A DNA stretch of 64,000 bases, taken from assembly GCF_011745625.1 (NCBI RefSeq), contig NW_027191454.1, positions 186,001-250,000 on the forward strand, read 5' to 3'. The notes below the pieces were generated by a model. The model worked only from the letters and a program-made list of their open reading frames with translations, had not been told where the DNA came from and made no database searches. Position numbers and translations under genes: made by a program. How positions within the stretch are numbered: the first letter of the stretch is position 1; every line of letters starts with the position of its first letter. Source of the stretch: Cladosporium halotolerans (Eukaryota). Shown here in pieces: positions 6,318 to 40,485 of the stretch.

Positions 6318-9083
6318 CTATAGCGACTCAGGCAGTGCCTCCGGAATATATGCGAGATTCACAATCGCAGCCAAGCCATAGTTCGCGGCCTCATTCGTCG
6401 AGATCCAAGTAGCCTCATCCACAGGCGCCAAAACCTCGCTTCCGTTCAGACGCTCCACCTCCCACGTGCCCGTAGTGTTCAGCCCATCGGCCTCAAACTC
6501 GCTCCAGGCGCGGTCAGCGTACGTCTGGTTCTGCGTCAGGTAGTACCCGTGAGCCAGCAGGCGCGAGTGGTCTTGCCGCAGAGTGGCAGTGCGGGTCCAG
6601 TTCGTGCCGTAGCGCGCTGTCTGCTCGGCGGCCGGGGCGCGGTAGTAGTAGCAGTAGTCGAGCCAGGCTTGCTGGAAGCCTTCGGGCAGGTCGTCGTCGA
6701 ACTGCTCGATGATCTCCGCGATGACCTCCATGAGGCCGAAAGCGCCTGCGAGGTGTGAGACAGCGACGACGCCCTCGTTGTCCGGGTCTGTGGGCGGTGG
6801 CGAAAGCGTGCCGTCTTCACTGTTGAAGAGGGCGGAGCCGGTGACGAAGCCGTTCTTCAGGTTGACGACGCCGATCATGGTGTTGGTGAGTTTCGTCTTT
6901 GCTTCTTGCCAGCGAGAGCCCCGGCGCTCCCATTCCAGGAGCCAAGAGGCGGCGAGGGCGGACCAGTCGGTACCTAGGCCGATGGTGGCAGGCTGACCGG
7001 GTGCAGGCTCCCAGCCGTCGGTGCGGACCTTTCTGTTGGGGTCGAGGCGCTCGTATGTTTTGTCCGTGTCGAGAGTCTCGTCAACGAGCTCGCCGACACG
7101 CTCGTCGCCGCCTGAAACAAAGTAGAAGATCTTGCGATACTGCGCGGTGGATATACGCGCCTGCTTCGCACTATCGCCCCAGTGCTGAACGCCGTGTCTG
7201 GTTCCAAGACCCTTCCATTGACCAATGTGATACACATCCACCTCACCTGTGTGCCTAGTCAAGGCTTCAGAGAAACGGTAGACGTCCTTGTTGCCGGTGC
7301 GCAGGAACTGCGGCCAGAAGAACAAGTCGGGCGACAGTTCGGAGTTGTCCCACGCGTAGCCACCAATGTCGTAACGCCACTGGTGCCTGTCGACGTCGTA
7401 GGTGTGCATAATGTCGCCGCTATCGAAGAACCCGTACCATCTGCGCTGCTCCACTTGATCTTGGTAGAATTTGGCGAGAAATTCGAGGTTGCTCTCAATC
7501 TTTGCGGCAACATCGCTGGAGGTGTTGGAAGATGGCGGAGCCCACCAGTTGCCCGCTGCTTTGGTCTCATGGACATATTCAGGCTCGGCGTAGAGGACAG
7601 GTGGGGTGTTGGTGTGCTCAATAAGAGTCGAGAGGTGGTCTTGGGGCGGGGTTTGGTCAAAAGCGTAGATGTAGAGCTCGTTTGTACGAGCGACGCCGTA
7701 AGGCGTGTCAAAGCCTTCCTCCCAGTCTTCGTATGTGATCTCAAGAGCATCAAGCTGTTCCTCGTAAGTCTCTAGGCCCAAGCCATCGTGGTATGGACGA
7801 AGATCAAGCGGTGGGGCTTCGGGGCTGTAGAGCCAGGCAGTGATCTGACCAACATCGGTGGCTGCATCTCTGATGTCCAGCCCTACGGGATAATGCTTCC
7901 AGAAGTTGCGCAAGCCCACAGCCAGACCTCCTTGGGTTGCTCCGCCCAGGTAAGCCAGGCCTCCAGACCTGGTAGATCCAGGAATGTTGACCCAGCTTTG
8001 TCCGGGCTTAGTGCGCTTCTTCAAAGTGAAGCCGTCGGGAGACAGCTGGGACAGAGTATAGTCGTTCCAATCCGGGATCCATTGAAGTCTGCTCGAAACG
8101 CGCGTGTCCCAGGTATCGATGCTTGGAGTAGCCTCTCCGTTGAACTGAGCGGACCGGACCTCCTCGCCTGGATCTCTGCGAAGTCCAGTGATACCCTTCA
8201 CGGCTTCACTTAGCATACCTCCGTCGACACCTGCAATTCTCACATGACGGTTGTACAACTCCTCGTCAGTCAGAGGAACTTCAAAACGGACACCGACGCC
8301 AGTGATGAAGTCTCCAGTAGAATTCCCGTCGAACACGACGCTATGAACAAGGCGGATTGCGTCTGAGTTTGCGTAGAGGTAAAAACGCAAGACGAACTGG
8401 AGCCAGTCATCGTGGTCTTCTCCATTGGCAACCTGGTGTTTGCCACGGACAGTCACCAGCGTGCGGACTGGGCTGTTCTCAGAGACCGTGACGTTGTCAA
8501 TCGCGCTCTCGAAACCAAAGTATCCAATCGAAGAATTTCCCCTGTCTTGAATGTCCTCGCTGACGCCAGACTGTGAATGTAATACAAGTTTGCCGTTTTG
8601 ACCAACAACTTTTCCGCCGGCAGTTGTAATCTGATCGATGACATTGTTGCCAGTCCGAGGGAATGAGACTGATATCTTGCCAGTATCAACAGTAATGCCG
8701 TCATCGGAGGACAAAGTAGTGACGCCAGCAGGCTGAGAGGCATTGCCAGCGCCAGAGGAAGCAGTGATCACGTAGCTTTCCTGACTAGCCTCTGAGGCTG
8801 GAATCGCATGTCCAGTCCATTTGATCGAGCCATCGTTCCAGTACGCCGTAACCCAAGACTGCAGAGCACCATCACCAGAAATGGCGAAATTGGTGCCGTT
8901 GGGAAAGAACTTGCCGCGTGCCCATGGTAGGCCAAATGTCGTTCCCGAATTGTAGGCCGGTGCTGAGCCGTCGATCCAGCGTACATTGACGCTTTCGTCA
9001 GTGTTGTTCTGGTATTGCTGCCCACTGCTACGCTGTACAAGCGCAGCCGTGGCAGTCAGTGCCGCGAAGAATGAATGCAACAT
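6318..9083 (-). CDS. Secreted rhamnogalacturonan exo-lyase, polysaccharide lyase family 26 (PcRGLX/YetA-like)
   Basis: Intronless 921 aa from ATG 9083 with a signal peptide (MLHSFFAALTATAALVQRSSG). Motifs TTFGLPWARG, YWNDGSIKWTGHA, RWYGFFDSGDIMHTYD..WRYDIGGYAWDNSELSPD and GLGTRHGVQHWGDSAKQARIS. Confidence 0.85.
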   Translation of the reverse strand: MLHSFFAALTATAALVQRSSGQQYQNNTDESVNVRWIDGSAPAYNSGTTFGLPWARGKFFPNGTNFAISGDGALQSWVTAYWNDGSIKWTGHAIPASEASQESYVITASSGAGNASQPAGVTTLSSDDGITVDTGKISVSFPRTGNNVIDQITTAGGKVVGQNGKLVLHSQSGVSEDIQDRGNSSIGYFGFESAIDNVTVSENSPVRTLVTVRGKHQVANGEDHDDWLQFVLRFYLYANSDAIRLVHSVVFDGNSTGDFITGVGVRFEVPLTDEELYNRHVRIAGVDGGMLSEAVKGITGLRRDPGEEVRSAQFNGEATPSIDTWDTRVSSRLQWIPDWNDYTLSQLSPDGFTLKKRTKPGQSWVNIPGSTRSGGLAYLGGATQGGLAVGLRNFWKHYPVGLDIRDAATDVGQITAWLYSPEAPPLDLRPYHDGLGLETYEEQLDALEITYEDWEEGFDTPYGVARTNELYIYAFDQTPPQDHLSTLIEHTNTPPVLYAEPEYVHETKAAGNWWAPPSSNTSSDVAAKIESNLEFLAKFYQDQVEQRRWYGFFDSGDIMHTYDVDRHQWRYDIGGYAWDNSELSPDLFFWPQFLRTGNKDVYRFSEALTRHTGEVDVYHIGQWKGLGTRHGVQHWGDSAKQARISTAQYRKIFYFVSGGDERVGELVDETLDTDKTYERLDPNRKVRTDGWEPAPGQPATIGLGTDWSALAASWLLEWERRGSRWQEAKTKLTNTMIGVVNLKNGFVTGSALFNSEDGTLSPPPTDPDNEGVVAVSHLAGAFGLMEVIAEIIEQFDDDLPEGFQQAWLDYCYYYRAPAAEQTARYGTNWTRTATLRQDHSRLLAHGYYLTQNQTYADRAWSEFEADGLNTTGTWEVERLNGSEVLAPVDEATWISTNEAANYGLAAIVNLAYIPEALPESL

Positions 9084-11383
9084 GGCTGCACCGCAAGGAC
9101 GAGCCAATGCTCTACAACGAAACGGAGGCGAAACATGTAGACTTATTATACCGCGGTGCCATCCATACATTCAAGGCTCACTTGGGTGAGCATTCATCTA
9201 TTTTGCCGTACCCAAGATGCTACCCCTCTCGCGTGACAAGACGCAATGGCGCTATGCCACGGTAGCGTTGTTCCTGCATTGTTGCGTCTGCACGAATTGA
9301 GGAGAAATACTGTCAACACCTAAGAGGCTCTGATCAAGCTCTCAAGGCCAAGAATACGCGAGGAGGCTGGGTTCCTGTACAGGTAAGGATGCGCTGTCGT
9401 CGGTGGAAGATATAGCGAAAATGCGGCAGGCCCTCGGCACAACGGAAGCGAATAACTTCCTCTATAAAGGACTATAGTTTAAGGGGGAGTGTTAGATCGA
9501 AGCGAAGGTAGTCAGTTTTCGCGCCAATGAGTGTCCTCTTCTCACAACCTTGAAATCTGAAAACGCAGGAGGGTTGCCTCTTGTTTTGAGGGAGAAGCTC
9601 ATGTGGAGCCGAGGTGTTGTGATCGGGGTCATGACCTCCATTGAGATTAGTGCGGCGGGCAGTCCCGGTGTTGGTGCCACACCTTAAGTGGATCTCAGCT
9701 CAATCCAATCACATACACCTTCTCGCAGCCGCGATGTACGGGGAACACAAGTGGCTGTGCATCCGTGGTCTCCACGGCTCTGATAATCGGTGAACGGCAA
9801 CATGTACAATCCAATTTCTGGCCGAATGCCCGTCTCGCCCGTCTCGCTCACCCAGTAACTGGACGAGCCACGCTCGTTCGACTGTAACGGACAATACTCT
9901 TCGGTCAATCGGATTTCTTACTCAACGTCCACTTAGCCAGGCACCAACCATTGCACGCGGATCATATATGTCTCCCAACGAGCAATTTGGCCAACAGCCC
10001 ACGCTAGGAGGCATGGGCTCGAAGTTGGTTCCAATCCAGAGCAAAAAAATGCGAAAAAGATGTGGCTCTGCCGTGAATCGAACACGGGTCTGCGCGGATG
10101 CTGAATGCTCGCTGAAGACGAGGGACCACAACACGCTGTACTATCCACTATACTACAGAACCCTGATTGATGGAGATGGAGGCCATTTCTGGGAATATAT
10201 TCGCTGTTTGTGACCCAGATTCGACGCTCGGCGATCCTTGGGGATTGTCTCACGCATTCTTGACGACTGGGAGAAGTTGCAAAGGCCACAAGACATCCAA
10301 ATGCATGACCAGTCTCATAGTTTCCCCATATGCGCCCCCGACGCCACCTCAGACTTCCGTAGACTGGCAGACCTTGGAGCTACCAGATCCGGCTTTCCCT
10401 ACCATTTGCGATCATGGCCGCATGCTTGGTGGTCTTGGTGGTGACCTACGACCGCATATGACAGTCTCGGGAAAAGGGATGGCCTTCATGGGGGTTGGCG
10501 CAGACCTCGACGCACGTGTTGACACATGCGACGGGAGATTGCAGCTTGGAGGGGATCGCTGTCCAGGAACTGATGAAGAAGTCGTCCAAGGTCCACGACT
10601 GCCTGCGAGGAAGGTCTCTTAGGAGACATCTATATGTATCTGGTCATACGGCGCGCTATCCCTGGGCTTGCAGAGCCATAGCGAGCCTACCAGCTTCCCT
10701 TCATCATCTCTCACACGTGGAATACTTATAATCAGAACAGACACAGATGTTCCTCTCACTGATGAGCTCAGACTCTCGCAGAGTCCCAGTTGTCGCCTCA
10801 CTTCTTGGAACCCAGTAGGAAGGAGAAACCAGAGTGCTGAATATATTCTTAAACTTAGCTGGAATATCGACAGGGTTTCTGACATATGCAAGTCGCATTT
10901 AAGGTCATCTCACTCGTTGGACATGAGGCAGGCTTACCCCAACCCTAACCCTCGCAACCATACGGGACTCCTTGGGGTAGCTTTGGAATTTCGCAGTCCT
11001 TTACGTGGCACAAATTCGAGCATGAAGACAAGACCTCGGCTTGAGGGCTCGCACGCAGCCCTAGTCATACCAGTGTTTGACAAGATGTGTCCTAGACTTT
11101 ACGTGTCGCTCGGGTCTGCGCTGGAGGTCGCATCTACTCACTCGAAGCCATCATCTACTGCAGCCTGAGGCGACAACACCGATAAGATAAGAGCATTCAC
11201 TTTTACTCTCCACCCATTCATGCTACCACGCCTCTACGCCGACCTCGAAGGATCAGCGAATGAGAAGCTCGCAAGCCGATGTCTCCGCAGTTGCTTCCCC
11301 ATGGAAGACGATCAACCTCGTAACTCTGCTCCCTTGAATCCTGCAGCACCGAAGTTTCCGGCAAAATGAATGCGAAGGCCGGT

Positions 11384-11402
11384 TCGGTGCCCAATTACCC
11401 GA
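11384..11402. promoter_or_regulatory. TCGG-N11-CCGA palindrome (Zn2Cys6 site, RhaR/PDR-1 or Gal4-type spacing) upstream of GH35
   Basis: TCGG tgcccaattac CCGA, ending 155 nt before ATG 11558. Confidence 0.6.
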
Positions 11403-11557
11403 GCTCTAAGATGTAAAGTGACGGATAAGTACGAACACTGGAAGACGACGATTACTGCAACTCGCGCCGGCCTCTGTCTACTCAGTCTTTCATCCATGAT
11501 CAAACATTACTACAGCCTACTCTCTACAGCCTACAACTCCTTCCAGATCAATTTAAA

Positions 11558-13285
11558 ATGCCACCACAAATCCCCCACCTCCGCTTAACACCTACATCCA
11601 AGCAGCTAATCGTCGACGGCAAACCCTTCCTGATGCGCGCCGGTGAGCTCCAAAACTCCTCCATGAGCTCGGCCAAATACATGGCAGAGGCATGGCCGAA
11701 GCTTGTAGAGGCGAATTTCAACACAGTGCTAGGCTCTGTCGCGTGGGAGCAAATCGAGCCGGAAGAGGGGAAATTTGATTTCACAGAGTTGGACGCGTGT
11801 TTGCAGGGCACGAGAGAGCATGGACTGAGGCTTGTGTTGCTTTGGTTTGGGAGTTTTAAGAATGGTCTGTTGTCTATGGGGAGTGACGGCGTGTGTATTG
11901 AAGGCTGATCTTCGATAGGTCTGTCGACTTACGCGCCTTCTTGGGTGAAGACGAACATCAAGCGGTTCCCGAGGGCGCGGTTAAGGAAGGCTGGTGGCGA
12001 AATCGCGATTGCCGATGTCCTCTCCATCTTCCACGAGGAAGCTCAGAATGCCGATGCGAAGGCTTTTGCGAAGCTTCTTACGCATCTCAAGGAGGTGGAC
12101 GGCGATCGGTCGAATGTGATTATGGTTCAGGTGGAGAATGAGGTTGGCCTGCTCGGTGATTCGCGTGATGGTTCGAGTGCTGCTGAGAAGCGATTCAAGT
12201 CTGCTGTGCCAGCACAGCTAGTCAGAGCCTTGGAAGCAGAGAAGAACCAACTTCGGCCTGAGATGCGATGGGCTCTCGAGCGAGTCAAGAAGAACTCAAA
12301 GGGAACGTGGACAGAAGTGTTTGGACATGGGCGCAAGACTGACGAACTCTTCATGGCTTACCACTATGCTTTGTATCTTGAACAAGTGGCGAGCGCGGGT
12401 AGGAAAGAATACGCTCTCCCACTGTACACGAACGTCTGGCAGAACTACAACGGTGAAGATGGCGACAAGAGCTTCCCCACCGTAGTCGGAGGGGGCGACA
12501 ATCCTGGAGACTACCCTTCAGGAGGCGGCGTGATCGACGTCCTCGACATCTGGAAAATTTTCGCGCCTTCTCTTGACATGATCTCGCCGGACGTATACCT
12601 GAACGACTACAGCAAGACTTGCGCGAAGTACCGCCACCGAGACCAGCCGCTATTCATCCCCGAGCAACGCCGTGACGAGTATGGCGCAAGACGCGTCTGG
12701 GTGGCTGTTGGGAGCTATCAATGCCTGGGTGCGTCGCCCTTTGGCATAGACACCCTCGAGCCGCATGAGAACCCCTTCAAACGCCATTACGGTTTGATGG
12801 CCCAAGTGTCAGAGCACATCCTGCAAGCTCAACGTGATCACAGCAGCATCGGGTTCTTCTTCGATGAGCTCCCGGCGGGTGCTGGCGCTACAGATCCCTC
12901 ACCGCCTCAAAAAGCAAAGTTTGGACCTTGGACATTGACCATCCAGCGGTCTTTCGTCTTTGGACACCCTGGCCCGGGATTCGGGATGGTCATCCACAAA
13001 GGCGGTGCGAGATTTGTGTTCATAGGCGCCGGATTTCAAGTCACATTCAGGCACGAGTCGGCGTCATTCACAGGAATCCTTCGTTTCGACGAGAAGGAGG
13101 CTCAAGAAGATGGTTCGCTAAGGACATTGCGAATGCTGAACGGCGACGAGACAAGGAGCGGCGCATCCTGCGTAATGCCAAACGAGAGCCCAGACTATGG
13201 CAATTTCCCAATTTGCATCACAATCCCGGCCAGGACGATGATCGCGGAGGCGGAAGTGTATGCCGTGGAAGACGACGAGGCATGA
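11558..13285 (+). CDS. GH35 beta-galactosidase-like protein with C-terminal DUF5597-type domain; no signal peptide
   Basis: Motifs LIVDGKPFLMRAGELQNSS, WEQIEPEEGKFDF, LVLLWFGSFKNG, VIMVQVENEVG, GDYPSGG, LFIPEQ, RMLNGDET. Intron 11865-11918 joins KNG to LSTYAPSWVKT. Confidence 0.88.
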
Positions 13286-14108
13286 GAGGGCTTGGGAGAG
13301 TGACCAGTTGGAAGCACGCCGGCATTGGGAGCACAACATCCGTGTGCCGTATGCAATGCACAGTCGCCGGGGCCTCAAGGTGAACCCACACTAGGTGATC
13401 ACATCCGGGCCAGAGGCGCTTCATGGCACCCTCGTAGCCACGTTCCTGCATGTCCATGCATGTCAGCCTTGTTTCGCGTACATAGAAGCTGGGACTGCCG
13501 TGGGGTGGTGGCGGCACGTTAGAAGTGGGTACGGTAGCTCGCTGTCGTGCAGCTCGCGTGCTCGTAAGAGCTTTCAGATTGAGTTTACGCGTGCAGAGAT
13601 TGTGTAATCTAGGTACTCAGAACGTCTCGCGATATGTGGACACATGATACCTGGAGACTAGAGTCGAAACCGAGGCTGTGATAAGCGCGCGGCAAGGGCC
13701 AGTCCCAGAGTGGGAGCTGAGGCCGCTCCGATCCCTTCCATCCGACGCTTTGGCGAAGGAACATCACCCGCCCACCATCCTGCACTCTCTCCCCCGACCA
13801 AGCCGCCGCCGCGAGCCTGTGCGACATGGCGTAGTAACATCAACCTCCTCTCCTATACCCGCCGGTCTAAGTATGTTTCATCTGTCTCCTGCCATCCCTC
13901 CCTCCCTCCCTCTCCTTCTCGTCTAATCCGCATATGCACGATGATGATGTCGAGCGTCTGGAGCTGCTGTAAGATGTAGCAGGTACTCTCGCTCGCAACA
14001 ACCGCATCCGCACCGCAGCACATCGCCCAGCGCAGCAGAACCACCGCTCCAGCCAGCGAAGCAAAACCAACAAGCGGCGCTCCGCCCCATGGCGCCGGCC
14101 CGCCGTCT

Positions 14109-14687
14109 ATGCCTCAGCACCCACCCTCCCGCGCCCGCCCACCGCAGCAGCAGCCCCGCCAGCAACAACAATACCCACCGCAGCCTCGCCCACAGAACTA
14201 CCCACAATACGCCCAGCAAGGCCAACCGCCGCGCCAACCCCCACCCGCCTCCTCCCCGCCAGCTTCCATCCCCGACACCAACCTCGGCCTCTCCGCCCAA
14301 GATGTCTCCACGCTCCGCCACCACCAACAACTCGCGCACACCTCCGCGCGCTCCAGCGCCGGCAGCGCCGCCTCCTCGCAGGGCCGCCTGCTCCTCGACG
14401 CCAGCAGCCTGACGCTGCTGGGCCGGCACCTGGAGCGCGTGATGGGCGCGATCCAGACGCGGCTGGAGGCGCTGAACCGCGCGACGGAGCTGGCGACGGC
14501 GGCGCAGGGCGCGCGGGGAGCGGATGCGCTGGCGGTCGCGGACGCGGAGATCGCGCGCTTCAGGGCGCTGCTGAGGCAGATCGACGAGCTGGAGGCGGAG
14601 TTTGAGAAGATCGGGAGGATCCGGGAGATGGTTAGGGGGTTTCGGGCGAGGGTTGAGGCGATGGAGAGGAGGGTTGAGAGGAGGTGA
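14109..14687 (+). CDS. CNL1: BLOC-1 subunit Cnl1-like coiled-coil protein with Gln/Pro-rich N-terminus
   Basis: SIPDTNLGLSAQDVSTLRHHQQ..SAASSQGRLLLDASSL..ADAEIARFRALLRQIDELEAEFEKIGRIREMVRGFRARVE fits filamentous-fungal Cnl1. Confidence 0.72.
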   Translation: MPQHPPSRARPPQQQPRQQQQYPPQPRPQNYPQYAQQGQPPRQPPPASSPPASIPDTNLGLSAQDVSTLRHHQQLAHTSARSSAGSAASSQGRLLLDASSLTLLGRHLERVMGAIQTRLEALNRATELATAAQGARGADALAVADAEIARFRALLRQIDELEAEFEKIGRIREMVRGFRARVEAMERRVERR

Positions 14688-15188
14688 GGGCGAGGTGGGG
14701 TTCTGGGGGGCTGGTTTGGGATGCTTCGAGTGGGCTTGCTTGGGCAGGGAACGGTTCCTCGGGTTTGCTGGGTATTGGCTGCGATGATGGCGGGACGGGT
14801 GGTCACGCGAGCAGCGGAACGACTCTCGAGGGCTCGTTTGCCTTCGTCTGAGGCTCACGGAAGACCAGGCGTTCTAGCGGAAGGGACGCTGGCAAAACCC
14901 AAGAATAGGCGGCATCGAAGCCGCCTGCGCCTCACGGCGACAAAAATTCCGGTTTTATAGTCATCTCATTATCAAAGAAACATCCTCTATCTCAACTACT
15001 GAATTAAATTTCTGACTTCAATACGTATCGCAACTGCTATACTGGGTATATCCACTATGAACTCCTACCAAAAAACCCCACCCCGGAAATCCACAATCCG
15101 AGAAACGAGACCGAAATCGACGCGGCTCTTGCAAGACCAGGCAAGACAACCGGTATAAACATTACCACCCCCTTCCTTCTCTCAGACA

Positions 15189-18100
15189 CTACATGACGAC
15201 GCAGTTCTCGTCGTCCTTCTTCTTGTCGCGCGTCAGCTTGCCCGACATGGCCTTGTTCTTGCCGCCCTTGCGCAGCTCCTCCAGCCGCTCGAGAGCCTTG
15301 GGAAATTGCAGAGCTGCGGCACGATCAGTCAGTAAGGTTTCCAACATACAAAGAGTGAGGACAATGACAACTTACAAGCAGCCCGCCCATACCACCTCTT
15401 CGCCTCCTCCAGACTCTTCGGGCACCCTATGCCCTGCTCGGTGAAGTAGCCCATGGCAAACATGGCCTTCGCCAGCGGCGGCTCGGACTGCGCGGCCTTG
15501 CGCGCCCACAGGTACGCCTCCATGTCGCTCTGCTCGAGCATGCCGTCCGCGCCCGTCAGGTACCAGCCGCTGAGCGCCAGCTCGGCGTTGTGCTCCCCTT
15601 GCGCGGCGGCCTTGGTGTACCAGGCGATGCTGGCGCGGTTGTCGATGTCGAGCCCGAGGATGCCGTACTCGTACGCCTGGCCGAGGCGGAACTGCGCGCG
15701 CTTGAAGCCGTACTCTGCGGCGCGGCGGAAGAGCGAGAGCGCGTAGGCCTCGTCGGGGAGGACTTTGGCGCGGACTTCGGGGTCGACGGTGGCCGGGTCG
15801 TGCAGCGTGGCGAGCTCGTGCAGGGCGTGCGGGTTGTCCTTGTCGGCGCGCTCGGCGGCGCGCTTGAGCCAGATGTGCGCTTCGCCGACGTTGCGCGGGA
15901 CGCCGAGGAGGCCGCGCAGGAGGACGATGCCCAGCTTGTACATGGCGGCTGCGTCGCCGAGGGCGGCGGCGCGCCGGTACCATTGCACGGCTTTGGGGTA
16001 GTCTCTGCGCGTGCCGCCACCTTCTTCGGGGCCGATTTCGCAGGAGACGGCGGTGCGGAATGCGGCGGCTGCGTGGCCTCCTTTCGCGGCTGCTTGGTAG
16101 AGGGCAAAAGCTTCTTTGGAATCCACCTGGAGGCCGAGCTCACCGGAGCCGTAGCATTCGGCCATGAAGAATTGGGCTTCGGGATAGGAGTTCCGCACAA
16201 GGTCTTTGACACGCCTGTAGGCGTCGTTGAGGTACTTTTCGCGGTTGCGCTGGGTCATCTTCGCATCGAGACGTCCACCCTCGGATGCGAGCACGTGGGA
16301 TGCCTCGACCAGCTTCTTGGCATATCTGAGTGCAAGTCGGGGACTAGCTGGGCTGGCTTCTGCATCGATACGAGCCTGTTCCAGATCTGCTTTTGTGATG
16401 GGCTTGTCCGAGATGGAAGGCTGCCTCGTGTGCGATGATGACGACGAACGGTTATCGTAGTTCCTGACCGGTGCAGGTTTGGGAGGCTGAGGAGCGCCTT
16501 GTTGTTCCATGAGCCCAGGCCTGAAAGGAGTAGGGTGGTGGGGTAACGTGTCAGGATCGCTGCGTCTTTGCTGCTGTGGTACTTGGCCATTCGGCGGATG
16601 ACCAAGCGGCGCTCCAGGTGGCATTCCTCGCATGGACTGCTGCGCTGGTGGCGCACTAGGTGCTCTATGCTGCTCGTCGAGGAATCTACCATTCGGAGGA
16701 ACGCCACGAGGCGGTCCGCCTGGTGGACCTTGATGCATGGGTGGAGCAGTGGGAACACGTTGTTGCCCAGGATCGGACCAGCCGCCTTGAGCCATCGGAG
16801 GACGAGTGGAAGCCGAGCGTTGCTGTGGTGGAAGAGGGCCTTGACCGCCTGGATGGAAACGATTGGCTTGAGAGTGTCCAGGAGGAGGACCTCCACGCAT
16901 AGGCATCTGCATTTGCCGTGGGTTTACAGGCGATTGGTGTTTCCGCATATCTTCCGGGGGCGCAGACTGAGGAGGTCCGTAACCCATGGGTTGTTGACGA
17001 GGCGGTGGCTGCTGAGCGTAGTCGTGTTGTGGGGACGCGCGGACCTGCTCGCCGGGCACACCGAAGACAAAGCCATCAGATATCTCATTGCGACCTTGAC
17101 CGGTGCTAGTCAGATCCGGCTCTGAGGCCACGGCGGAGTCTGCAGGAGTGTAGGGCTTCTTGCTGTATGCCGGCAACGATTGCGCACTCCCGTTGACCTG
17201 CTGCCCAGGCATTGGAGGCGCTGGCTCGGACTTTGTCTCCGCGAGATGCTTGTCGACAGTCTCTTGGCGTTTATGTAGGCTGGAAGTCTGTCCTGGTGCT
17301 GCACTATCAAAATCTGGCATCTCAGCCTCGATTTCTTCCTCTCTGTTCTTGGGCGGTGGCGGAACAGCTACAGAGTCTGCCTGATCATCACCGAGATAGT
17401 CATCGTACAAGTCATCAAGGGTTTGCTGTTGGTCTAGCTGCGATTGTGTGGCATGTGCAACGCTGGGCTCATGGTAATGGTGCGTCTGAGCATAAGCTTG
17501 AGTACCGCTAGCGTTGGGTCGTTGTGACGGTGCATTAGGGTTGTCATCTGCAGCTTGGTAGGCCATGGCGGCTCCCGCATGTGGTACAGGCTTCCTTCGT
17601 TGCTCATCAGGTCGATGGGCCGCTGTAGGCTGTGGCTGATGTACGTGCTGTGACCGCCCTTGGGGAGGTGGCATCCCATGTTGCTGCGCGTTCATTGGTG
17701 CACCAGCGTGAGGCTGTTGTGTGCTGATCGGAGAAGGCTGTTGTTGCACCCTGTCCCTAGGATGCGAGGCGGGGTCTCCATGGCCTTGAGGGGCAGCTCC
17801 ACCTCGCATTTTTTGCTGCTGATATGGCCGAGAACTGCCCTGGGGCGGCTGTCCATTTCTTTCCCATTGCTGTTGAGGATACTGGTCATAAGTTTGTTGC
17901 TGTGAGTACTCCTGCATTGGTTGTTCTTGAATCGGGTCGAAAGATTGCGCGCCGCGGGTCGGGTAAACCTGGTGATGCGACTGCCCACCAGCAGCATCGC
18001 GAGGGGGCGATCCATTCTTCTGTTCGTTGCTCCTCGAACTTCCAGGCCGCGAGCCGTGGCGATTACCAGACGAAGACGGCCGAGCCTGCTCTTCGCTACT

Positions 18101-18982
18101 CCTTGCACTCTTAGTTCCACGCGCTTTTTCTTCTTTCGACGTTGACGGAAACGTTGGGAATGCGTTATCTTGTGGGACGATCTTGGGCTTCCCAGCAGCT
18201 TCATGCATCTTCGCCTTTTCTTTAGCCTTCCATTCCTCCATAGCGCTCATCTTCGGCTTCTGTGGAGCTGGATCAGGGTGGCGACCTCCGCTATGAGACT
18301 CGTTCGCGGCTTTCCTGCCGACCGGAGCTTCTCCATTCGGCCGACGCTGGTCTGCGTATCCGTTACGCATGTCCCGTTCCTGTTGCACAGGCGCCTGATT
18401 CGGGTACCCTGAGCGGCCTGTAGGCTGCCCATTCCGCGAGTCCTGCCTGTCAGGTTGAGCAGGTCGCCTATTATAATCTGAGCCCGAGGTTGGAGGCCTC
18501 TGAGCAGGTGCTCCGTTAGGAGGAGCACGAGGGTCTCTGCCAGGGCGCTGTTGATATCGAGGGTCGTAGTTTCGATCGTGAGGATTGCGGCCGTTCTGCC
18601 GAGGGTCTCCGTAGCCTTGGTTCGGTTGTGCCCAGCCATTGGTTTGGTAGGAGCGATCATCGCGCCCGTACTGTTGACGTCCAGCGTCTTGCGAAGGGTA
18701 GCCTTGATCGTACTGATCGTATCCGTAGCCATTCTGCATGCCGCTGTCTCCATAGTATTGGCCGTGCTGCGAGTTCATGCCGTGACTATAGTCATCATAC
18801 CCTCCGTGCTGTTGGTACTGATCGTAGCCGCCATACCCTTGGTCGTAGGGCTGCTCGTACCCGCCGTACTGATCATGCTGCGCAGAATAGCCGCCATACT
18901 GCGCCTGGGCCGGAGCCTGACGATATTGACCGTGGTGATCCTGCCGAGGAGGCCTGTAGGCGGCTGATTGATTGTATGCCAT
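15189..18982 (-). CDS. CHS4: Chitin synthase activator, Chs4/Skt5 family (SEL1-like repeats, C-terminal CaaX)
   Basis: Long Q/P/G/Y-rich disordered N-terminus followed by SEL1 repeats. Intron 15314-15375 (GTAAGT..CTGAC..CAG) gives the terminus SLQFPKALERLEELRKGG...KKKDDENCVVM*, a prenylation motif. Confidence 0.88.
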
Positions 18983-19896
18983 GCTGCTGGCGCGGCGTGC
19001 TCCGGAAGTGAGTGGTGGAGCGGAGATTAGGGGTTCAGGCCAGGAACTCCATTGGGCGTTCTTCGAAGTGAATGTATGCAGGCGTGGGAGTCGATGTATG
19101 CCGGAGAGCGGTGGTCGCGTGGGGAAGGGCCGAAGTGGAGCGAAAGGTCGGCAAACAGGCGTGTAGAATCTTTGTCTGTAGCTAAGCCGGATCTTCTTAC
19201 AGATCTTGACGTTTCGGGAGGCTGCGAGCAGGGAAGTGACGTTTCAGGATGCGCGACGAGGACGGCGGAGATGCTGCGACGGGCAATGGCGGGTGCAAGG
19301 GTGGCGCGGCGCCGGGCAGGGTGCGGAGGGAGCGGCGGGGGCGAGAGGGTGGTGGTTGTGGTAGAGAGCGCAGGCACAGCAGGATCAACGGCTGATCGTC
19401 GTCACGCGCCGGGCTGTCGCAAGAAGGGCTCGGACGACCAACGGACGACCAACCATCGCGCGCTGTCGCCGCGCACCGCCACCGACGCCTGCCCCGCGCC
19501 TGCAGCCGGCGGCGCTAAGAAGCCGTCAGGATGCATGCGAGGCTTGTCTCATGCGCCCGCCCACCACTGCCGGCCGCGCTGTGGCTTGCACCTCTTCACT
19601 TGCCGCGCCGATCGTCACGTGCTGCCGCCGCGTCCAGGAACATCGCACCACATACGCGTCTCACGATATGTGTCGCAGGAGCTAGTGCCTACGCTCGCAC
19701 AGCTGAAGCGGACACTCACACCGCAGCGCTGCTACTGCACGCGTGAAACGGGTCGTGACGTCGCACGGTTTCGGCCGGATCCTGGGGAAAAGGGCCTCGA
19801 GACAGCCCTACAGCGACTTCAAACGCCATACCTACGAATCGCATGCTGTGATCAGCACCCTGCAAGCTCAAACACACGGCGAGGCACACGCCCAGC

Positions 19897-22595
19897 ATGC
19901 CGCCCAAACCACCCCAGCAACCCTCAGCGCAACAGGGCAACAAGCGCAAGGACCCGCCGAAACACAACGCTTCTGCCAAACCTCACGCAGCGAAACGCCC
20001 GCGCTTCGACCAAGCTTCCAAAACGCGCGATGCCCGTACTCTCGCCTCACAGACGAGCTCCAAAGCCTTCAAGCATGGCGAGCTGGACGTCGACAAGTTC
20101 GTGAAATCGCGCGAGTATGAGATCCGCGCGCTCGAGCACGGCCTCGCCCGCAGCAAGAAAGCTCTTACGAAAAGAGCTTTCCAGCAGGTGCCGAAAGAGT
20201 TGAGGAGAAGGACGGCGAGCCACAATGTGAAGAGGATACCGAAGAAGCTGAGAGAGCGGGGAAAGCGGGAGGTATGTTGTTTCGCCGTGCCATTGGCGTG
20301 GCTTCAAGGTTGGTATTGCGCATTGGCGCTGTGAACGGCAGCTGATGGCTTTTGCAGATGGTTGAGGATAACACGCCTACTGTTACCGCTCGACGGAGGA
20401 AGGCTTCGCGACACATGCGACTGAGGCAAGAGACGGCCAAGAAGCTCAGAGCAATGGGTGCAAAGCGAAAGGCCAGCAAGGAGAAGGCCAAGGATGGAAA
20501 AGTCACCGTGAAGCCAATGCCAACTACCGACACCGATGTGCAGATGGAAGACTCAGGTGTAATCAAGACCCGCGCTCCACGAGTGAAAAAAGCCAACCTC
20601 GCACAGCCACCCGAGCCCAAGGCCAAGTTCCGCAAGCGACAGATGCACAAGTCATGGCTCCCCACGCATATGTTCCACACGAAGCGGGCCCGGATGACGC
20701 CGCCGAAGGAGTCTCTATGGCGCTTTGCTGTGCCCATGACTCCGACGGCAAAGAGCTACAGACCGACGCACCGCGCGGCCAGTGAGCGGGGTGCTCTTTG
20801 CTGGGATGTCAGCTACATGAGCACCATATCTCTAAGCGGTCGGGAGGCAAGCATTGCCGGCATGCTTAAGCAGCTTGGTGTAGGCGAGACCGAGAGTTCG
20901 ATGTGGGGATTGAAAGGAGACAAATGGCGAGCGGGAAAGCGAGCGATGGAGTTCTTCCTTCACGAGCGAGAGGTTCCTCATTCGCCAATTGCACCGGTAA
21001 CCGTCATCTGGTGTGCAGCGGATACGACTGAAGTCGAGGAGAAGCGCAAACGTCAAGTTTTCCTTCGAGTTCATCCATCCGCTTTCTCGCAGCTGTGGGA
21101 GGAAGCCCTGCGGGTCGCTAAGATCGCAAAGCCATCCGTGACGGTGGAGGACCTGCGATTTGAAATTGGCAGTATTGACGTGACTGGTCCTGCATCTACA
21201 GAGGCTCTTCTCAGTGCGCTTTGGCCTACGTCTTACGAGGTTACTACTGAGCGACCGGGACAAGGATCAGGGCGTACTTTTACTCAGCTCCACGGTCTTA
21301 CCAACCCTGCTCTGCTGCCTAGTGGCGCCCTTCTTGCTTTCAACATTCAAGATCCAAGACTGCATCACCCGCCTCGACCCGTCAAGCAGCCCGACACGCC
21401 CGATTCTCAGATGAAGCTCCTCGAGCTTATCGCCGAATGGCCAGGCGATGCTAGCAGCACCGCAGCAGAAATTTTCGATCGCAAAGCTAGATTGGCAGCA
21501 TCTGCGAGCCTTCCCAGCCAGAAAGCGATCAACAGACGGGGTACTCTCGCTTCGCCGGGTCAGTATCCCGATCCCATGGCAAGAGACCCGCGTATCCCAG
21601 TCATGCTCTACGTGCTACCGCCGAAGCATAACGCGAAGAACCAGCAGCTTACGTACCACCTCATTCTTCCTTGGAAGTGTGTCCAGCCGGTGTGGTACTC
21701 GCTCATGTACACGCCACTTTCAACCGGTCAGCAGCCGAAATTCGGAGGTCTGAATGAGCAGAGGCAGATTGCGTTGGAGAGAGGCGAGCACTGGTTCCCG
21801 GCAGATTATCCAGGCACAAAGGCCGGTTGGAACTGGGAGGTGGAAGAAAGCAAGAAGAGGAAAGACTACTGGGAGAAACGGCCCAAAAGCAAAAGGGCCA
21901 GCTGGGAAGCAGTCGATCTGGGCAACGACAAGAAAGGCGAAGTCGGTCTCGGATGGGCCTGCGACTGGACTCGCCTCCTCGAAGGACCCAAGCCCACCCA
22001 GCACCCACCAACCGACAACCCAACATCGCACCCCGCCACGACCTCCCCACCCTCAATGCCACCCACCCTATCCCAACTCCCGCCGTCCCTCGCCCATTCT
22101 CTCTTCTCCCCCTCGAACCCCACAACCCCACCTCCCTCCTCCCTCCTCCTCCCAATAACCCTCCACCTCCTAACCCGCGGCGTCCCCACCCCCTGCGCCC
22201 GCATCTACCGCCTGCCAACCACAAACCCCACCCTCCGCGCCTCCTGGCTCGCCCTGCACCCGCGCAACCAACCCAGCACAAAATCCCGCCGCAAAACCGC
22301 CGCGCCCCCATCCAACAACAGCGACGTCCCGCCGCACGTCCGCCGCCAACGCCTCGCAGCCTCGCTCCTCGAGCCGCCTTCCGCGGGCGACAAGGAGTGG
22401 CCTGCCTGCCCGGGCGAGGAGGATCTGGTCGGTTTCGTGACGAGTGGGAATTATGATCTTGGGGCGGGGAGGGGCGTTGGGGTTGGGTGTTTGGTGCTGG
22501 GGAGGGTGGATTTGGACGGTGGCGAGGAGGGGAGGCTGTGTGTTGTTCGGGGGGCGGGGGTGGGGGTGGGGAGGTTGGGGAGGTGGGAGGTCTGA
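19897..22595 (+). CDS. POP1: RNase P/MRP subunit Pop1
   Basis: Motifs FVKSREYEIRAL, RAFQQVPKELRRRTASHNVKRIP, WLPTHMFHTKRARM, WDVSYMS, FPADYPGTKAG, DLVGFVTSGNY. Intron 20272-20357. Confidence 0.93.
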
Positions 22596-23587
22596 TTTAA
22601 GTGTAGGATGGTGGTGTTTAGGGAGTGATGAGAGAGGGAGCGTAGCCTTGATAGAGTAACGAAAACATAAAGATATCGCTCCCTCCGGGGCGACACATTA
22701 TCAACGTGACACTCGCACTGGCAAGCGGACTTGGTAGCCGTGAGAACACAACGTTTGCGGAGATAAATGATCTTGCTGCTTTTGGGAAAAAGAAGTCATT
22801 CTTCGGAGGCTGCCAAAAAAAAAAAGAGCAAAAACATACAACAGGCGGGATTCCCAGATGGTCACCCACTCTAGTACTAGTCGCCCGGTTCAGTGCTTAT
22901 GTATGGCAGAGCGGACGGGATGCCCAGTTTTCACTGACCTGTGGTCGTATGTGCTGATACACTGTGATGCAAATAACTTATACTTATGTCATATTTTGAC
23001 AGCAGGGCGAACAAGGAGGTTCAGCTAACGCCTGCTCCACCATCTACGTCAAACAGCTACGACCACCAACAAAAGACGAAAAATCCTTCAAGGAACGTTC
23101 CATCTCTCGTCTTTGGAGTCGATGGCACGAGCACACATCTAACGTAGTTTGCTTTCTTTCACTGCAAAGAACTTTCCAAATGGCTGATGAGGTAGCCAAG
23201 GACGAGACAACGACTCGGTCACTTGGGCTTAGAATTGGGCGCTGGAGCAGTCTATTTGCGAATGATGAAACCTGAATAAACTCTAGATAGACCATTGTCC
23301 AAATCTTGGAAAGTTTCTCTTTGCAAAACGATGATGCTTGGAAGAAGTCGGGATGACTTGATGCGATTGAGATAGCCGTAAAGGCTCATAAGACAGTCTG
23401 AAGGCCTTAGATGATATAAAGATTCACCTTGTCGCTGAAGCCGGTACAGATCTTAGCGTTATCCCCGCAATGCATATCATGTTTTGCCGCTATTTCTTAT
23501 TGCGACTCTGACCCTAATTGGTTTTCCCGCCTTCTCGTCCGTCCTGGAACCGGCTCATCAGGCTAATCCTGTGTACGCGAGATGCTT

Positions 23588-23606
23588 TCGGTATGAAATG
23601 TACCGA
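23588..23606. promoter_or_regulatory. TCGG-N11-CCGA palindrome upstream of PL4 lyase
   Basis: TCGG tatgaaatgta CCGA (arms extend to TCGGTA/TACCGA), about 195 nt before ATG 23801. Confidence 0.6.
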
Positions 23607-23800
23607 GGACGTACATCGTGACAAGAGACCTTCTGGGTTTCGTTAGGGCTGCTGCCCTACTCATCTCCGAAAATTGACTTCCCATTTCGCATGAGAGACC
23701 GGCACAGAAAGGATGAGTAGAAAGATAGACGTCCCTCTCGCCCCTTCTCAGAGATTCACTCCATCTCACAGGTCGCTGGTCGTAGCTGAGCTCATACTAA

Positions 23801-25856
23801 ATGCTGCGAGCTATTGTATTCTTAGAATGGGCCGCAATCGCTTGGGCGGCCCTCAATGCCACGGAAGACTCGACAAGGCTTACCATTAACAACGACCGAC
23901 TGTTCGCTTCTGTCGATAAATCAATTGGCGCTATTGATAGACTTACACTTGATGGTCAAGATTTGCTCGGCGCGAGATCTGGCAACACTGGCATCGGTCC
24001 CTACTTAGACTGCTACTGCGTCCCAAGCGGTGCTTATACTCCTGGTCGCATTGACCCAGTCTACACGCTCCTGCAAGGTACCGATGCGAGCAAGACGGCA
24101 TGGGCCGGCGTGGTCATGAGCGAGACCTATCCGGCTACTGGCCAAGTGCTTGAACAGTACTGGTTTCTTCGTGATGGAGAGACTGGTATTCACACATTCA
24201 GCAGACTGGCCTATCACAACTCTACAACGCAATTTCTGCGGAATTTGCAAGAGTTTAGAACGCTTTTCAGACCTAACACAAAGCTCTGGACGAACTTGTC
24301 GACAAACGCAATTCAATATGCACCGCTACCGAACCCCAACCCAGCTGCAGGAGGGAAAGGCGATTTCGTTACAGTGCAGGATGCGACTTGGTATCTCCCA
24401 AACCGCAGCGACCCGTATGTGATCCAGGAGTCTGACTACTTCACCAAATATACATTCTCCGATATTTGGAGAGATCATCGTGTCCATGGACTGTTCGCAG
24501 ATGGTTCAACAAGCCCAGACGGGTCAACATATGGTGCTTGGGTTGTCATGAACACTGTTGACACGTATTTTGGTGGCCCCAAGAATTCCGATCTGGTCGT
24601 GGATGGGATCCTTTACAACTACATTGTCAGCAACCATCATGGCAACGGTACGCCGAACATCACCAACGGTTTCGACCGGACCTTTGGACCAGCTTATCAT
24701 CACTTCAACAAAGGGCCCGCTGGCACTACGCTCGAAGAATCGCGCGAAGACGCTCTTCAGTACGCTTCACCAGAATGGAACGCTGAATTTTACGACTCTA
24801 TTGCTGTATATGTGCCAAACTATGTACCCACCTCGGGCCGTGGTACATGGAAAGGCAGCATCCGGCTTCCGCGAGACGCAAAGAAGCCAATTGCCATCTT
24901 GACTCAGAACAAAGCGGACTTCCAAGACAATGTCATCGACACCAAAGCTTACCAGTACTGGGCAGACATCGATCCGAGCAGTGGTGCCGTGCAGATCCCT
25001 CGCGTCAAGGCTGGTGCGTACCGCTTGACTGTGTACGCCGAAGACATATTCGGTCATTTCACGCAGGACAACATTGTTGTCAAGGCTGGGAAGACGGCAT
25101 CCACCAAGGTTCAATGGAAGGCCGAGTCTGCCGGCACTGAGCTGTTCAGGATCGGCACACCTGACAGGAGCAGTGGCGAGTATCGCCATGGCTATGAGCG
25201 TGATCCGACTCACCCGCTGCATCCTGAAGAATACCGTATCTATTGGGCAGCATATGACTATCCGACGGACTTTCCAAACGGCGTTCAGTTCAAGGTCGGA
25301 GAGAGTGATGTAGCGAAAGATCTCAACTACGTCCACTGGAGCGTCTTCGGCGGCTATGCGAACTCTGTCCGTCCGGAGCCATACTATGGCAATGGAGACG
25401 TGAACAACTGGACGATCGCTTTCGACACCACGAAGCGCGATCTCCAGCACAAGTCAAAAGCTACATTCACAATCCAACTCGCAGGCGCGAAGACCGCGGC
25501 AGGCAACACTGACAATTACAACGCTACTGAACCTTACTCGAATTTGCCCTACACGGTCGTCGTCAATGGGCATGCACTGGAGCCATGGATTATTTTGTAC
25601 GCCCATGACTTTCCCTCTCGCTGTTTGCCAGATGCTAACAGGATACAGGTACTACCACAGCAGCTCTTGTGCTGTTCGATCATCGGTCAGCTGCTACAAC
25701 ATCGCCCACAAGTTTGTCTTCGATACAAAGCTCCTAAAAGCTGGTGAGAACTCTCTCGTGCTGAGCTTGCCATTCAACGCAACGAATTATGAAAGTGCAC
25801 TGTTGCCACGGTCGGTGTATGTGCAGTACGATGCTTTGAGGCTTGAGCTGAGCTGA
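23801..25856 (+). CDS. Secreted rhamnogalacturonan endo-lyase, polysaccharide lyase family 4
   Basis: Signal peptide. Motifs GIGPYLDCYC, QYWFLRDGETGIHTFSR, LQEFRTLFRP, YFTKYTFS, SNHHGNGTPNITNGFDRTFGP, VYVQYDALRLE. Intron 25597-25648 joins WIIL to YYHSSSCAVRS. Confidence 0.9.
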
Positions 25857-29587: not shown

Positions 29588-29668
29588 TGGACGAACCCGG
29601 AGTCGAACCGGGAACCTTCTCCATCTTAGCAATGCTAAGAAGATGTCATACCGCTAGACCATACGCCC
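29588..29668 (-). tRNA. tRNA-Ala(AGC) with a 9-nt intron (29624-29632)
   Basis: Minus strand folds as GGGCGTA-TG-GTCT/AGCGGTA/TGAC-A-TCTTC-TT-AGC-A-[TTGCTAAGA]-T-GGAGA-AGGTT-CCCGG-TTCGACT-CCGGG-TTCGTCC-A. Has the G3:U70 alanine identity pair, A73 and a downstream T4/T5 Pol III terminator. Confidence 0.93.
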
Positions 29669-31779: not shown

Positions 31780-32817
31780 CTTTGTGTCGTGATTTTCTCG
31801 AGTGACACCGTTAACGGCTTATCTTCAGAAATTTCGAAGGCTTAGCGATCGCGCTGTCAATCGATTGGCTGGTTGGAGTGCGCCTGCTGCACCGTAAAAC
31901 CAAATTCGACGACGAAGTCTGTATTGCGAGGAGATACCGTCAGAGCCGTCGGCGACAAGGCCTGTCTGATATTTTTGATTACCTCCATCGTTCGGGTCGG
32001 GAGGATGCGCGCGACCAGTCTCTGCCTCTTCAAGGGACCGCGGGGAATTTCCGGTGGCCGAAAGTTTGATCACCGGCTTCGGAGGGACTTCACTTCACGA
32101 AGTTCACGCGACACGCCTCACGTGCCGCCCTTCTGCTCATTTCTTGCTGCGATAGCTTATATGTGATCGGCCTGCGGAATTCACAGCATATCATTTGCAA
32201 AGTAATGCGTCAAGCCCAGCTTTCGCGCTTGGTGGCGGCACAGTCGTACATCTCAGTCCCCCAAACGAAAACAGCACACCTTGCACCCTCATTGGAGTGA
32301 ACTTGTCACATTCGTCCAGCACCAAGTAGTCTGAGCACGGTTTGCAGAGCGAAAGTTGGACGTCGAAGATGGGCTCGCAAAAAGTACGCGGTCCTCGTCA
32401 GTAGTCGGCAACTCGTTCACCAACTCACCAACACTCCAGGCAAGTATGCCCAGCCCGTTTGAGGTCCGGGTCAGGCATGGAAGCCTGCGACCGTCCCCTT
32501 GATGGTATCTACAAACTTTCCTTGTACGTATCAGCGTATGCCTTAGAACTTCAATTTTTTCGTCGCTTTGTTTTTGGCTCATTGGCTTTCACCGCTTGCT
32601 CGTCCACCGTTTGCGCGATCGCAAGACATTCACTTTCACATGTAAGAAGGTCCGTGCGCTAGGCACCTAGGCGCTCGTGCAGCGCGTGGTGTCGCTATTT
32701 TCATTTCACGGATATCTCGAGCTTCGCCCACTCGACCTCCCACCACTCCCTCCGTCTTTCCGGGTGCTAGACTGTAGCACTACGACAACTCCATTGTCAG
32801 GCCATCGCATCTTAAGA

Positions 32818-40093: not shown

Positions 40094-40485
40094 TAGACGG
40101 ACGACTAATACCCATCTTTGCTACATTGGATTTACGGATGCGAGAGAAAGACAAGGTATGCTTTCGTGGAGAACTTCCCGGGATTCAAGAGCCAAACAGT
40201 GGCCTTTTTTTGGGCGCAGGCGATGTCATGGATTTATCAAGCCATTCGATGACGATTTTTTTTTTGGCGATACGGATCAGTCAGAAAACGGCAGATTTCT
40301 GTTTCGATTGAGACGAGGCATTATTGAGCCGGGTGTACGATTTTAGCGGGTCCACGATTTTGACCACCAAGGTAGCTCCCATCAAGGTCGAGTACCAACT
40401 TTATGACGATATTCATAAAACGAAATATGTCTACCACGCATCCAGGCCTCATGATCCTTCCAAGAGCTCTCTCCGCCGCAGTACC

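Follow-up and report, generated by a model that had tools for sequence, protein, structure and literature searches.

The Aspergillus regulator RhaR binds the sequence CGG-X11-CCG in electrophoretic mobility shift assays, and its gene is divergent from lraC (Pardo and Orejas, PMC4245848). For PDR-1 of Neurospora crassa, the site TCGG-X11-CCGA has been proposed, and the core regulon includes the lra genes, gh105-1 with mfs-20, gh28-1, and gh35-2 (Thieme et al., PMC5469009). In Aspergillus niger, the RhaR targets include rglB, rgaeB, and urhgA (Kowalczyk et al., PMC5617896, citing Gruben 2014). RhaR/PDR-1 is a Zn2Cys6 activator that responds to rhamnose and acts through this site on rhamnose and rhamnogalacturonan I genes, the lra genes among them. 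Here we describe a 64,000-nucleotide stretch of the Cladosporium halotolerans genome (contig NW_027191454.1, positions 186,001 to 250,000; G000:C217:186001-250000 in our genome scan), hereafter called the window. In it, the genes for a PL26 exo-rhamnogalacturonan lyase, a GH35 beta-galactosidase, and a PL4 rhamnogalacturonan endolyase are preceded by exact or nearly exact copies of TCGG-N11-CCGA. These copies are probably RhaR/PDR-1 sites, and the three genes are probably members of a regulon dispersed over the genome, with no separate module of their own.

The exact site occurs on the forward strand at 11384-11402, 155 nt before the GH35 start codon (11558), and at 23588-23606, 194 nt before the PL4 start codon (23801). 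A copy with one mismatch, TCGG-N11-GCGA, in which the right CCG triplet is altered, lies at 9400-9418 on the same strand, 316 nt before the PL26 start codon (9083). Our motif scan thereby reproduced the three sites reported in an earlier note on this DNA, and the palindrome, which that note had named as the RhaR/PDR-1 motif, matches the site published in PMC4245848 and PMC5469009. The earlier note overlooked another GCGA-type site (23348-23366, forward strand), which lies 434 nt before PL4, and it counted two exact sites in the window when there are four, the others being within the coding regions of an adenylate kinase (40031) and an amino-acid permease (50741). It had also expected one exact site per 65 kb, but the 27.9-Mb genome contains 696 of them, or 1 per 40 kb (579 for a reversed-pattern control).

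The family assignments in the same note were upheld by Pfam and by PDB or homologue matches. The PL26 gene (6318-9083, reverse strand) has one exon and encodes 921 residues with a hydrophobic N-terminus; it matches PF19501, PF21345, and PF21346 as well as PDB 5xq3 (E=0), and it gave a single match when its own genome was searched. The GH35 gene (11558-13285, forward strand) encodes 560 residues of the bacterial-like DUF5597 subgroup, with DUF5597 at the C-terminus and both catalytic glutamates present. Its intron (11867-11920) is confirmed by two runs, X19 and X21, whose spliced contigs lack the 54-nt GT..AG segment, and its translation, read by eye, has no signal-like N-terminus, in agreement with the earlier description of the enzyme as signal-less. 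The PL4 gene (23801-25856, forward strand; predicted intron 25597-25648) encodes domains II and III, shows family-wide similarity, and has homologues named rhamnogalacturonate lyase B/C; no sequence match was found in the PDB. It is apparently single-copy, being the sole fn3_3 match in the genome.

Chance occurrence of the sites was assessed at several scales. Shuffled versions of the window contain 1.44 exact sites on average, and 3 of 100 shuffles reach four. When up to one mismatch is allowed, the window has 43 sites versus 34.6 expected, no more than chance would give. The chance per 500-nt promoter is 1.2% for the exact form and 3.5% for the GCGA variant, which occurs 2,030 times in the genome. 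An exact site within 500 nt at two of the three chosen promoters has a binomial p of 4e-4 before allowing for selection of the window and the motif.

For the genome at large, the earlier note had proposed an enrichment test. Whole families were scanned first and their members were then checked for the site, using the 500 nt before the start codon for the tally; in the controls, the first in-frame Met served as an approximate start codon, which may be wrong in some cases. The exact site was found in four of five rhamnose or rhamnogalacturonan I (RG-I) promoter regions elsewhere in the genome versus none of 63 other promoters (Fisher p = 6e-6). These 63 comprise 28 family controls, 13 PL1/PL3/CE8 genes, 3 other GDSL genes, and 19 further pectin-related genes. 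The site-bearing regions are those of lra1/lra2 (a single common site at -166/-203), a second lra1 (-241), an lra4-like gene (-229), and a CE12 acetylesterase gene (-301). When the lra4-like gene is omitted, the comparison is 3/4 versus 0/44 (p = 2e-4). By family, the exact site is upstream of 1 of 17 scored SDR genes (from 180 candidates), 1 of 9 amidohydrolase genes, and 1 of 5 DHDPS-family genes, and in the lra set exact sites arise with a spacer of 11 only. The 500-nt tally excludes an amidohydrolase locus that is truncated, a PL1 gene, a CE8 gene, two GDSL genes, and a fucP-like gene that is fused; at one of these GDSL loci, an exact site is about 1.3 kb upstream of the match.

The identities of these genes were established in different ways. 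Both LRA1 proteins are SDRs whose best PDB match by far is 7b81, which we take to be an L-rhamnose dehydrogenase. LRA2 is an amidohydrolase by the names of its database homologues, one protein record identical to it carries the label C. halotolerans, and its gene shares the site with the divergent SDR gene; LRA3 (rhamnonate dehydratase) was identified by NCBIfam and CE12 by PDB 1deo. The DHDPS-family gene is presumably LRA4-like, as judged from its position between lra3 and lra1/lra2 on contig C332, and the ESM Atlas gives it only a generic DHDPS name. In published work, LRA4 orthologues are described as difficult to assign, and the fourth gene is placed outside the cluster in most fungi. Divergent from lra3 on the same contig, from about 24.8 kb onward, is a rhaR-like gene. 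It encodes a Zn2Cys6 protein whose cysteines are spaced C-X2-C-X6-C-X6-C-X2-C-X6-C and which has the Arg-Lys and the Pro that have been described for RhaR. The window's own fungal transcription factor (46678-48324) was rejected as RhaR, having given one short match. Outside the window, site-bearing genes lie on contigs C332, C1, C142, C13, C185, C132, and C207.

Some loci met during these scans deserve a separate mention. On C332, lra3/rhaR, the lra4-like aldolase gene, and lra1/lra2 form a loose rhamnose cluster that spans about 42 kb and is interspersed with unrelated genes (G000:C332:23000-65600; L003, L120, and L226). The second LRA1-like gene (L219, G000:C1:441700-442500), which has its own exact site, encodes Cys in place of Gly in the nucleotide-binding motif relative to the C332 copy and may be diverging. 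Four pectinesterase-like domains are in very long open frames of 1606 and 1860 codons at G000:C57:162955-168204, and a FucP-like transporter domain ends an 894-codon frame after another membrane domain (L203, G000:C35:223348-224457). A Hortaea werneckii record of 1013 residues (P0168, 78 members) combines PL4 and GH105 (PF07470) domains, which may reflect a genuine fusion or two genes joined in the annotation.

The GCGA variant has a distribution of its own. It precedes genes for an endo-polygalacturonase (-133), two GH105 enzymes (-117 and -270), a secreted GH35 (-180), and gaaC (-299), which is presumably a galacturonate-pathway gene; the GH105 gene with the site at -117 shares its promoter with a transporter gene. 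The variant is present at 5 of 19 other pectin promoters versus 1 of 44 controls (p = 0.008, with classes set after some of the sites had been seen), an enrichment that is suggestive only. Genes of the same kinds as the GH105/transporter pair and the endo-polygalacturonase belong to the core regulon of PDR-1 in N. crassa. None of the 13 PL1/PL3/CE8 promoters has the exact or the GCGA form. The variant was not found in the available portions of published RhaR/PDR-1 site descriptions, and the supplement of PMC5469009 contains no site sequences.

Attempts to sharpen the motif were abandoned. A refined spacer consensus, TCGGT-N4-AAT-N3-CCGA, has four matches in the genome, two at the loci described here and two at unrelated genes. 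The pattern TTCGG-N5-A-N5-CCGA has 67 sites versus 77 for its control, 49 of the 66 examined lie under an open frame of at least 200 codons, and no pectin or rhamnose family was found beside the other non-coding sites scanned. Matches to GARE, CreA-type, and TG[CAG][GTA]GGG elements occur in the three promoters as raw matches.

Because the motif equals the published site and is enriched at rhamnose and RG-I promoters, RhaR control is likely for PL4 and plausible for GH35 and PL26. We hold it highly probable that the PL4 promoter has a functional RhaR site, we lean toward the same view for the putative GH35 site, and for the PL26 variant we see the balance as only just favorable. The GH35 gene would be an unexpected and possibly recently recruited member of the regulon. 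The earlier note's view that the three genes are co-regulated despite being dispersed is thus strengthened as regards RhaR control. Its proposal that they make up a module is not supported: the sites extend over many contigs, a tRNA-His gene intervenes, and the GH35 site is missing from the three closest orthologues.

A number of observations weigh against this interpretation. Approximately 120 promoters per 10,000 genes are expected to carry an exact site by chance, and the canonical target lra3 has none: the lra3/rhaR interval offers only seven of the eight bases, 12 nt before the rhaR start codon. Exact sites are also absent from the promoters of all nine GH28, four GH105, three secreted GH35, and two fucP-like transporter genes, and if gaaC is counted as a control, the Fisher p for the GCGA variant becomes 0.05. 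The three closest GH35 orthologues, L036, L067, and L037 (73-79% identity), lack the GH35 site, with only 193 nt of upstream DNA available for L037. In run X19, the PL26 and GH35 sites are both spanned by spliced contigs, a weak hint that these sites may be inside transcribed DNA. In published work, asd-1, the PL4 gene of N. crassa, is regulated in the opposite direction from PDR-1 targets (PMC5469009), A. niger rglB depends on GaaR on beet pectin and a different, short RhaR motif was proposed from a 6-10 nt search width (both PMC5617896), and CGG-N11-CCG is also the Gal4 site (PMC4245848).

To examine the GH35 promoter in relatives, we used one metagenome scan that yielded 80 GH35 loci. We took as fungal 24 of these that have upstream DNA and at least about 47% identity, and these form 20 groups set by eye; four loci had no usable upstream DNA, and we classed the remaining loci, with no tree as a guide, as bacterial or unclear. 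The exact form is present within 400 nt in 1 of the 24 promoters. With a relaxation to TCGG-N11-CCG that was chosen post hoc, sites with at least seven of the eight bases are found in 5 of 24 promoters. They represent 4 of 20 groups, versus a mean of 0.82 in shuffled sequences (p = 0.007), and 11 was the commonest spacer when TCGG-N-CCG was scanned with spacers of 0 to 20. In L067, neither half-site survives in the part of the promoter that can be aligned. In contigs of run X19, the PL26 site has one spacer change and none in its half-sites (among the 40 of 717 differences listed), as expected by chance at 5% divergence. The 5' part of PL4 (23096-24100) is uncovered by X19 and X21 and covered by DNA run X10, which we do not count as evidence.

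Gene order around these orthologues may reflect a different regulatory past. The GH35 gene faces a related sugar porter gene in 7 of the 26 fungal loci tabulated, and a Zn2Cys6 gene lies beyond the porter in L036, L067, and L046. In these three loci, GH35, the porter, and the related Zn2Cys6 factor make up a predicted three-gene uptake cluster. More broadly, DUF5597-type GH35 genes are linked to one sugar-porter clade, mostly divergently, in L036, L067, L043, L045, L046, L051, and L079 (also L059 and L063). Because the best matches in the C. halotolerans genome have 47% identity to the transporter and 35% to the Zn2Cys6 factor, versus 79% for GH35, both genes were probably lost in this lineage; no remnant of either was seen between PL26 and GH35 among the matches listed. 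The site is absent from all three factor-bearing loci and present in some transporter-less loci (such as the Alternaria-like L040), which hints at repeated regulator swaps. L051 has both the transporter and the exact site, so the pattern is not clean. In L036 and L067, which have 5-8 kb of upstream DNA, the transporter and regulator genes occupy the position of PL26, and the adjacency of PL26 and GH35 is therefore absent from the closest metagenome orthologues. None of the 80 GH35 loci gave a PL26 or PL4 match, but the majority do not extend far enough to reveal one.

The GH35 protein itself offers clues to its activity. Its best named match is from C. fusiforme (77%), and its nearest solved relative is the beta-1,2-galactosidase Bxy_22780 of Bacteroides xylanisolvens (8z47). 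It shares catalytic and galactose-site residues with this enzyme and with Bgl35A of Cellvibrio japonicus (4d1i): all 35 sequences in the alignment have the equivalents of E190, E350, W288, D326, Y328, and D494 without exception (numbering mapped by hand). The +1-site residue Q291 of Bxy_22780 aligns with Tyr in 34 of the 35, including the enzyme described here, and is followed by a 13-residue insertion; therefore, the aglycone preference may differ. For Bxy_22780, L-rhamnose is reported to be a minor acceptor that fits the +1 site, no more than a hint of possible activity on Gal-beta-1,4-Rha or galactosylated lyase products. Tetracladium TspBgal, a fungal beta-galactosidase of 564 residues, is likewise of the DUF5597 type and predicted to be cytoplasmic (PMC12519765). 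No natural substrate or regulator of a fungal DUF5597-type GH35 was reported in the literature found. The candidate A. niger orthologue An07g04420/lacD was dropped, as no sequence link was made.

PcRGLX, the PL26 enzyme of Penicillium chrysogenum, tolerates galactose branches. In the pathway we envisage, CE12 would de-acetylate RG-I, secreted PL4 would cut it internally, and secreted PL26 would release unsaturated GalA-Rha units. A transporter would then import these units, GH105 would free rhamnose inside the cell, and the LRA pathway would make the inducer from it, while the cytosolic GH35 might remove galactose left on the imported lyase fragments. This lyase/GH105 route fits the outcome of the GH78 searches, in which no convincing gene was found: PF17389 and PF05592 gave no match and PF08531 gave one weak partial match in a context unlike GH78, which does not prove absence. 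A more ambitious version combines several steps. GH35 would have lost its ancestral divergent oligosaccharide transporter and dedicated Zn2Cys6 factor, gained a RhaR site, and come to lie beside PL26; inside the cell it would hydrolyze Gal-beta-1,4-Rha and so complete the breakdown of galactose-branched material left by PL26/PL4 and GH105, in a rhamnosidase-free rhamnose route; and TCGG-N11-GCGA would be a second, hitherto unnoticed form of the RhaR site at polysaccharide-degrading genes. Taken jointly, these propositions are speculative, and we think it unlikely that all of them are correct.

Other explanations must be set beside the dispersed regulon. It could be that only the PL4 site is real. 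The GH35 gene would then have been cut off from its ancestral transporter/regulator cluster and would match the motif by chance, and the PL26 variant would be mere background. The missing sites in L036, L067, and L037, the single exact form among the 24 orthologue promoters, and the porter and Zn2Cys6 genes beside GH35 in relatives would be accommodated by such an account, as would the abundance of the GCGA form. We nevertheless find it improbable, because a fortuitous exact match is expected at so few promoters, the relaxed site recurs among orthologues with 11 as its commonest spacer, and the GCGA form is overrepresented at pectin promoters. A different CGG-N11 Zn2Cys6 factor, one governing galactose or arabinose metabolism, might read the GH35 site and perhaps the GCGA sites too, in which case the enzyme would trim beta-1,2-galactosides or lactose-like sugars and not RG-I fragments. 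Identity of the site core to that of Gal4, the beta-1,2-galactosidase activity of the nearest solved relative, the description of a fungal DUF5597 enzyme as a cytoplasmic beta-galactosidase, and the GCGA variant at the presumed gaaC all speak for this idea, but the exact 8-bp form tracks rhamnose genes in the genome, and we consider it very unlikely.

It is also conceivable, if doubtful, that PL26, GH35, and PL4 are a physically selected cluster, assembling or decaying, and not chance neighbors. PL26 and PL4 are apparently single-copy genes only 15 kb apart, the LRA genes on C332 are strung out in a similar manner, and the rough probability that a trio from 10-20 regulon genes falls within 20 kb is 0.0002-0.002. 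This estimate is partly circular, since GH35 is counted as a member by virtue of its site. Moreover, none of the GH35 loci, short as most are, has a PL26 or PL4 match, the two with sufficient upstream DNA have transporter and regulator genes where PL26 would be, and a tRNA gene, a 5S rRNA gene, and three housekeeping genes intervene here. A catabolic cluster is contiguous, with conserved linkage and often its own regulator, and PL26, GH35, and PL4 do not show this arrangement.

Five unrelated genes lie between PL26 and PL4. PL26 and GH35 are 2.5 kb apart and are separated by a tRNA-His(GTG) gene with a 28-nt intron (10062-10162, reverse strand), which was found by ARAGORN with introns allowed and missed by Rfam; therefore, the two are not simply served by one short shared divergent promoter. 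Between GH35 and PL4 are a conserved gene with no Pfam match and no fixed start (13923-14687, forward strand), whose homologue is about 5 kb upstream of GH35 in L036; a Sel1-repeat protein gene assigned by Pfam (main exon 15329-18991, reverse strand); and the gene for the RNase P/MRP subunit POP1 (19852-22595, forward strand), the 3' end of which abuts GH35 in L037. The latter two are unrelated to pectin. A 5S rRNA gene (22833-22952, reverse strand; Rfam RF00001, 78.5 bits) precedes the PL4 promoter. The earlier note's three intervening genes thus stand as the proteins encoded between GH35 and PL4, and the tRNA-His and 5S rRNA genes had been missed.

Other features of the window were recorded in passing. 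A 1073-nt contig of run X19, which is RNA only by guess, spans the intergenic tRNA-His region (9732-10789), and a short telomere-like CCCTAA stretch lies between PL26 and GH35 (10936-10955), where contigs of runs X16 and X10 end loosely. The tRNA at 29588-29668 is called as Asn without introns and as Ala(AGC) with a 9-nt intron if introns are allowed. Farther along are a C-5 cytosine methyltransferase gene (32671-34893) and a flavin monooxygenase gene with only a weak ornithine-oxygenase match (40312-42288).

The element described here is real but already known, most of the genes that carry it are expected ones, and together they are probably a new instance of the RhaR/PDR-1 regulon. It extends that regulon to a Dothideomycete with sequence-level support and adds PL26 and a cytosolic GH35 as candidate members; no report of PL26 as a RhaR/PDR-1 target was found in the literature, with subscription journals largely outside the search. 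Three points stand out: the cytosolic GH35, which is apparently rewired; PL26 as a candidate target; and the GCGA form of the site. If GH35 cleaves Gal-beta-1,4-Rha, a missing intracellular step in fungal RG-I use would be filled, and the gene would be a natural case in which control passed from the regulator of a local cluster to a global regulator. Regulon predictions that use the strict palindrome miss many targets if RhaR binds the GCGA form. Should neither reading hold, this is an ordinary instance of the RhaR site.

The resemblance to the described systems is close in its main lines. As with RhaR (A. nidulans AN5673 and A. niger) and PDR-1 (N. crassa NCU09033), the same site is present and a rhaR-like gene is divergent from lra3, and the target types match those of the RhaR/PDR-1 regulon: lra genes, an rglB-type PL4, CE12, GH105 with a divergent transporter, endo-polygalacturonase, and beta-galactosidases. 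The PL4 protein has domains II and III and B/C-named homologues in common with the A. niger RglB type, its proposed orthology to RglB being based on how homologues are named in databases and on the absence of a match in the PDB. The PL26 protein, here known from its sequence, matches PcRGLX (PDB 5xq3) over the full length and in all three Pfam domains. The beta-galactosidases differ, in that the GH35 targets of PDR-1 are described as secreted (PMC5469009), whereas the enzyme examined here is of the cytosolic DUF5597 type. With no convincing GH78, C. halotolerans is like N. crassa and unlike the Aspergilli.

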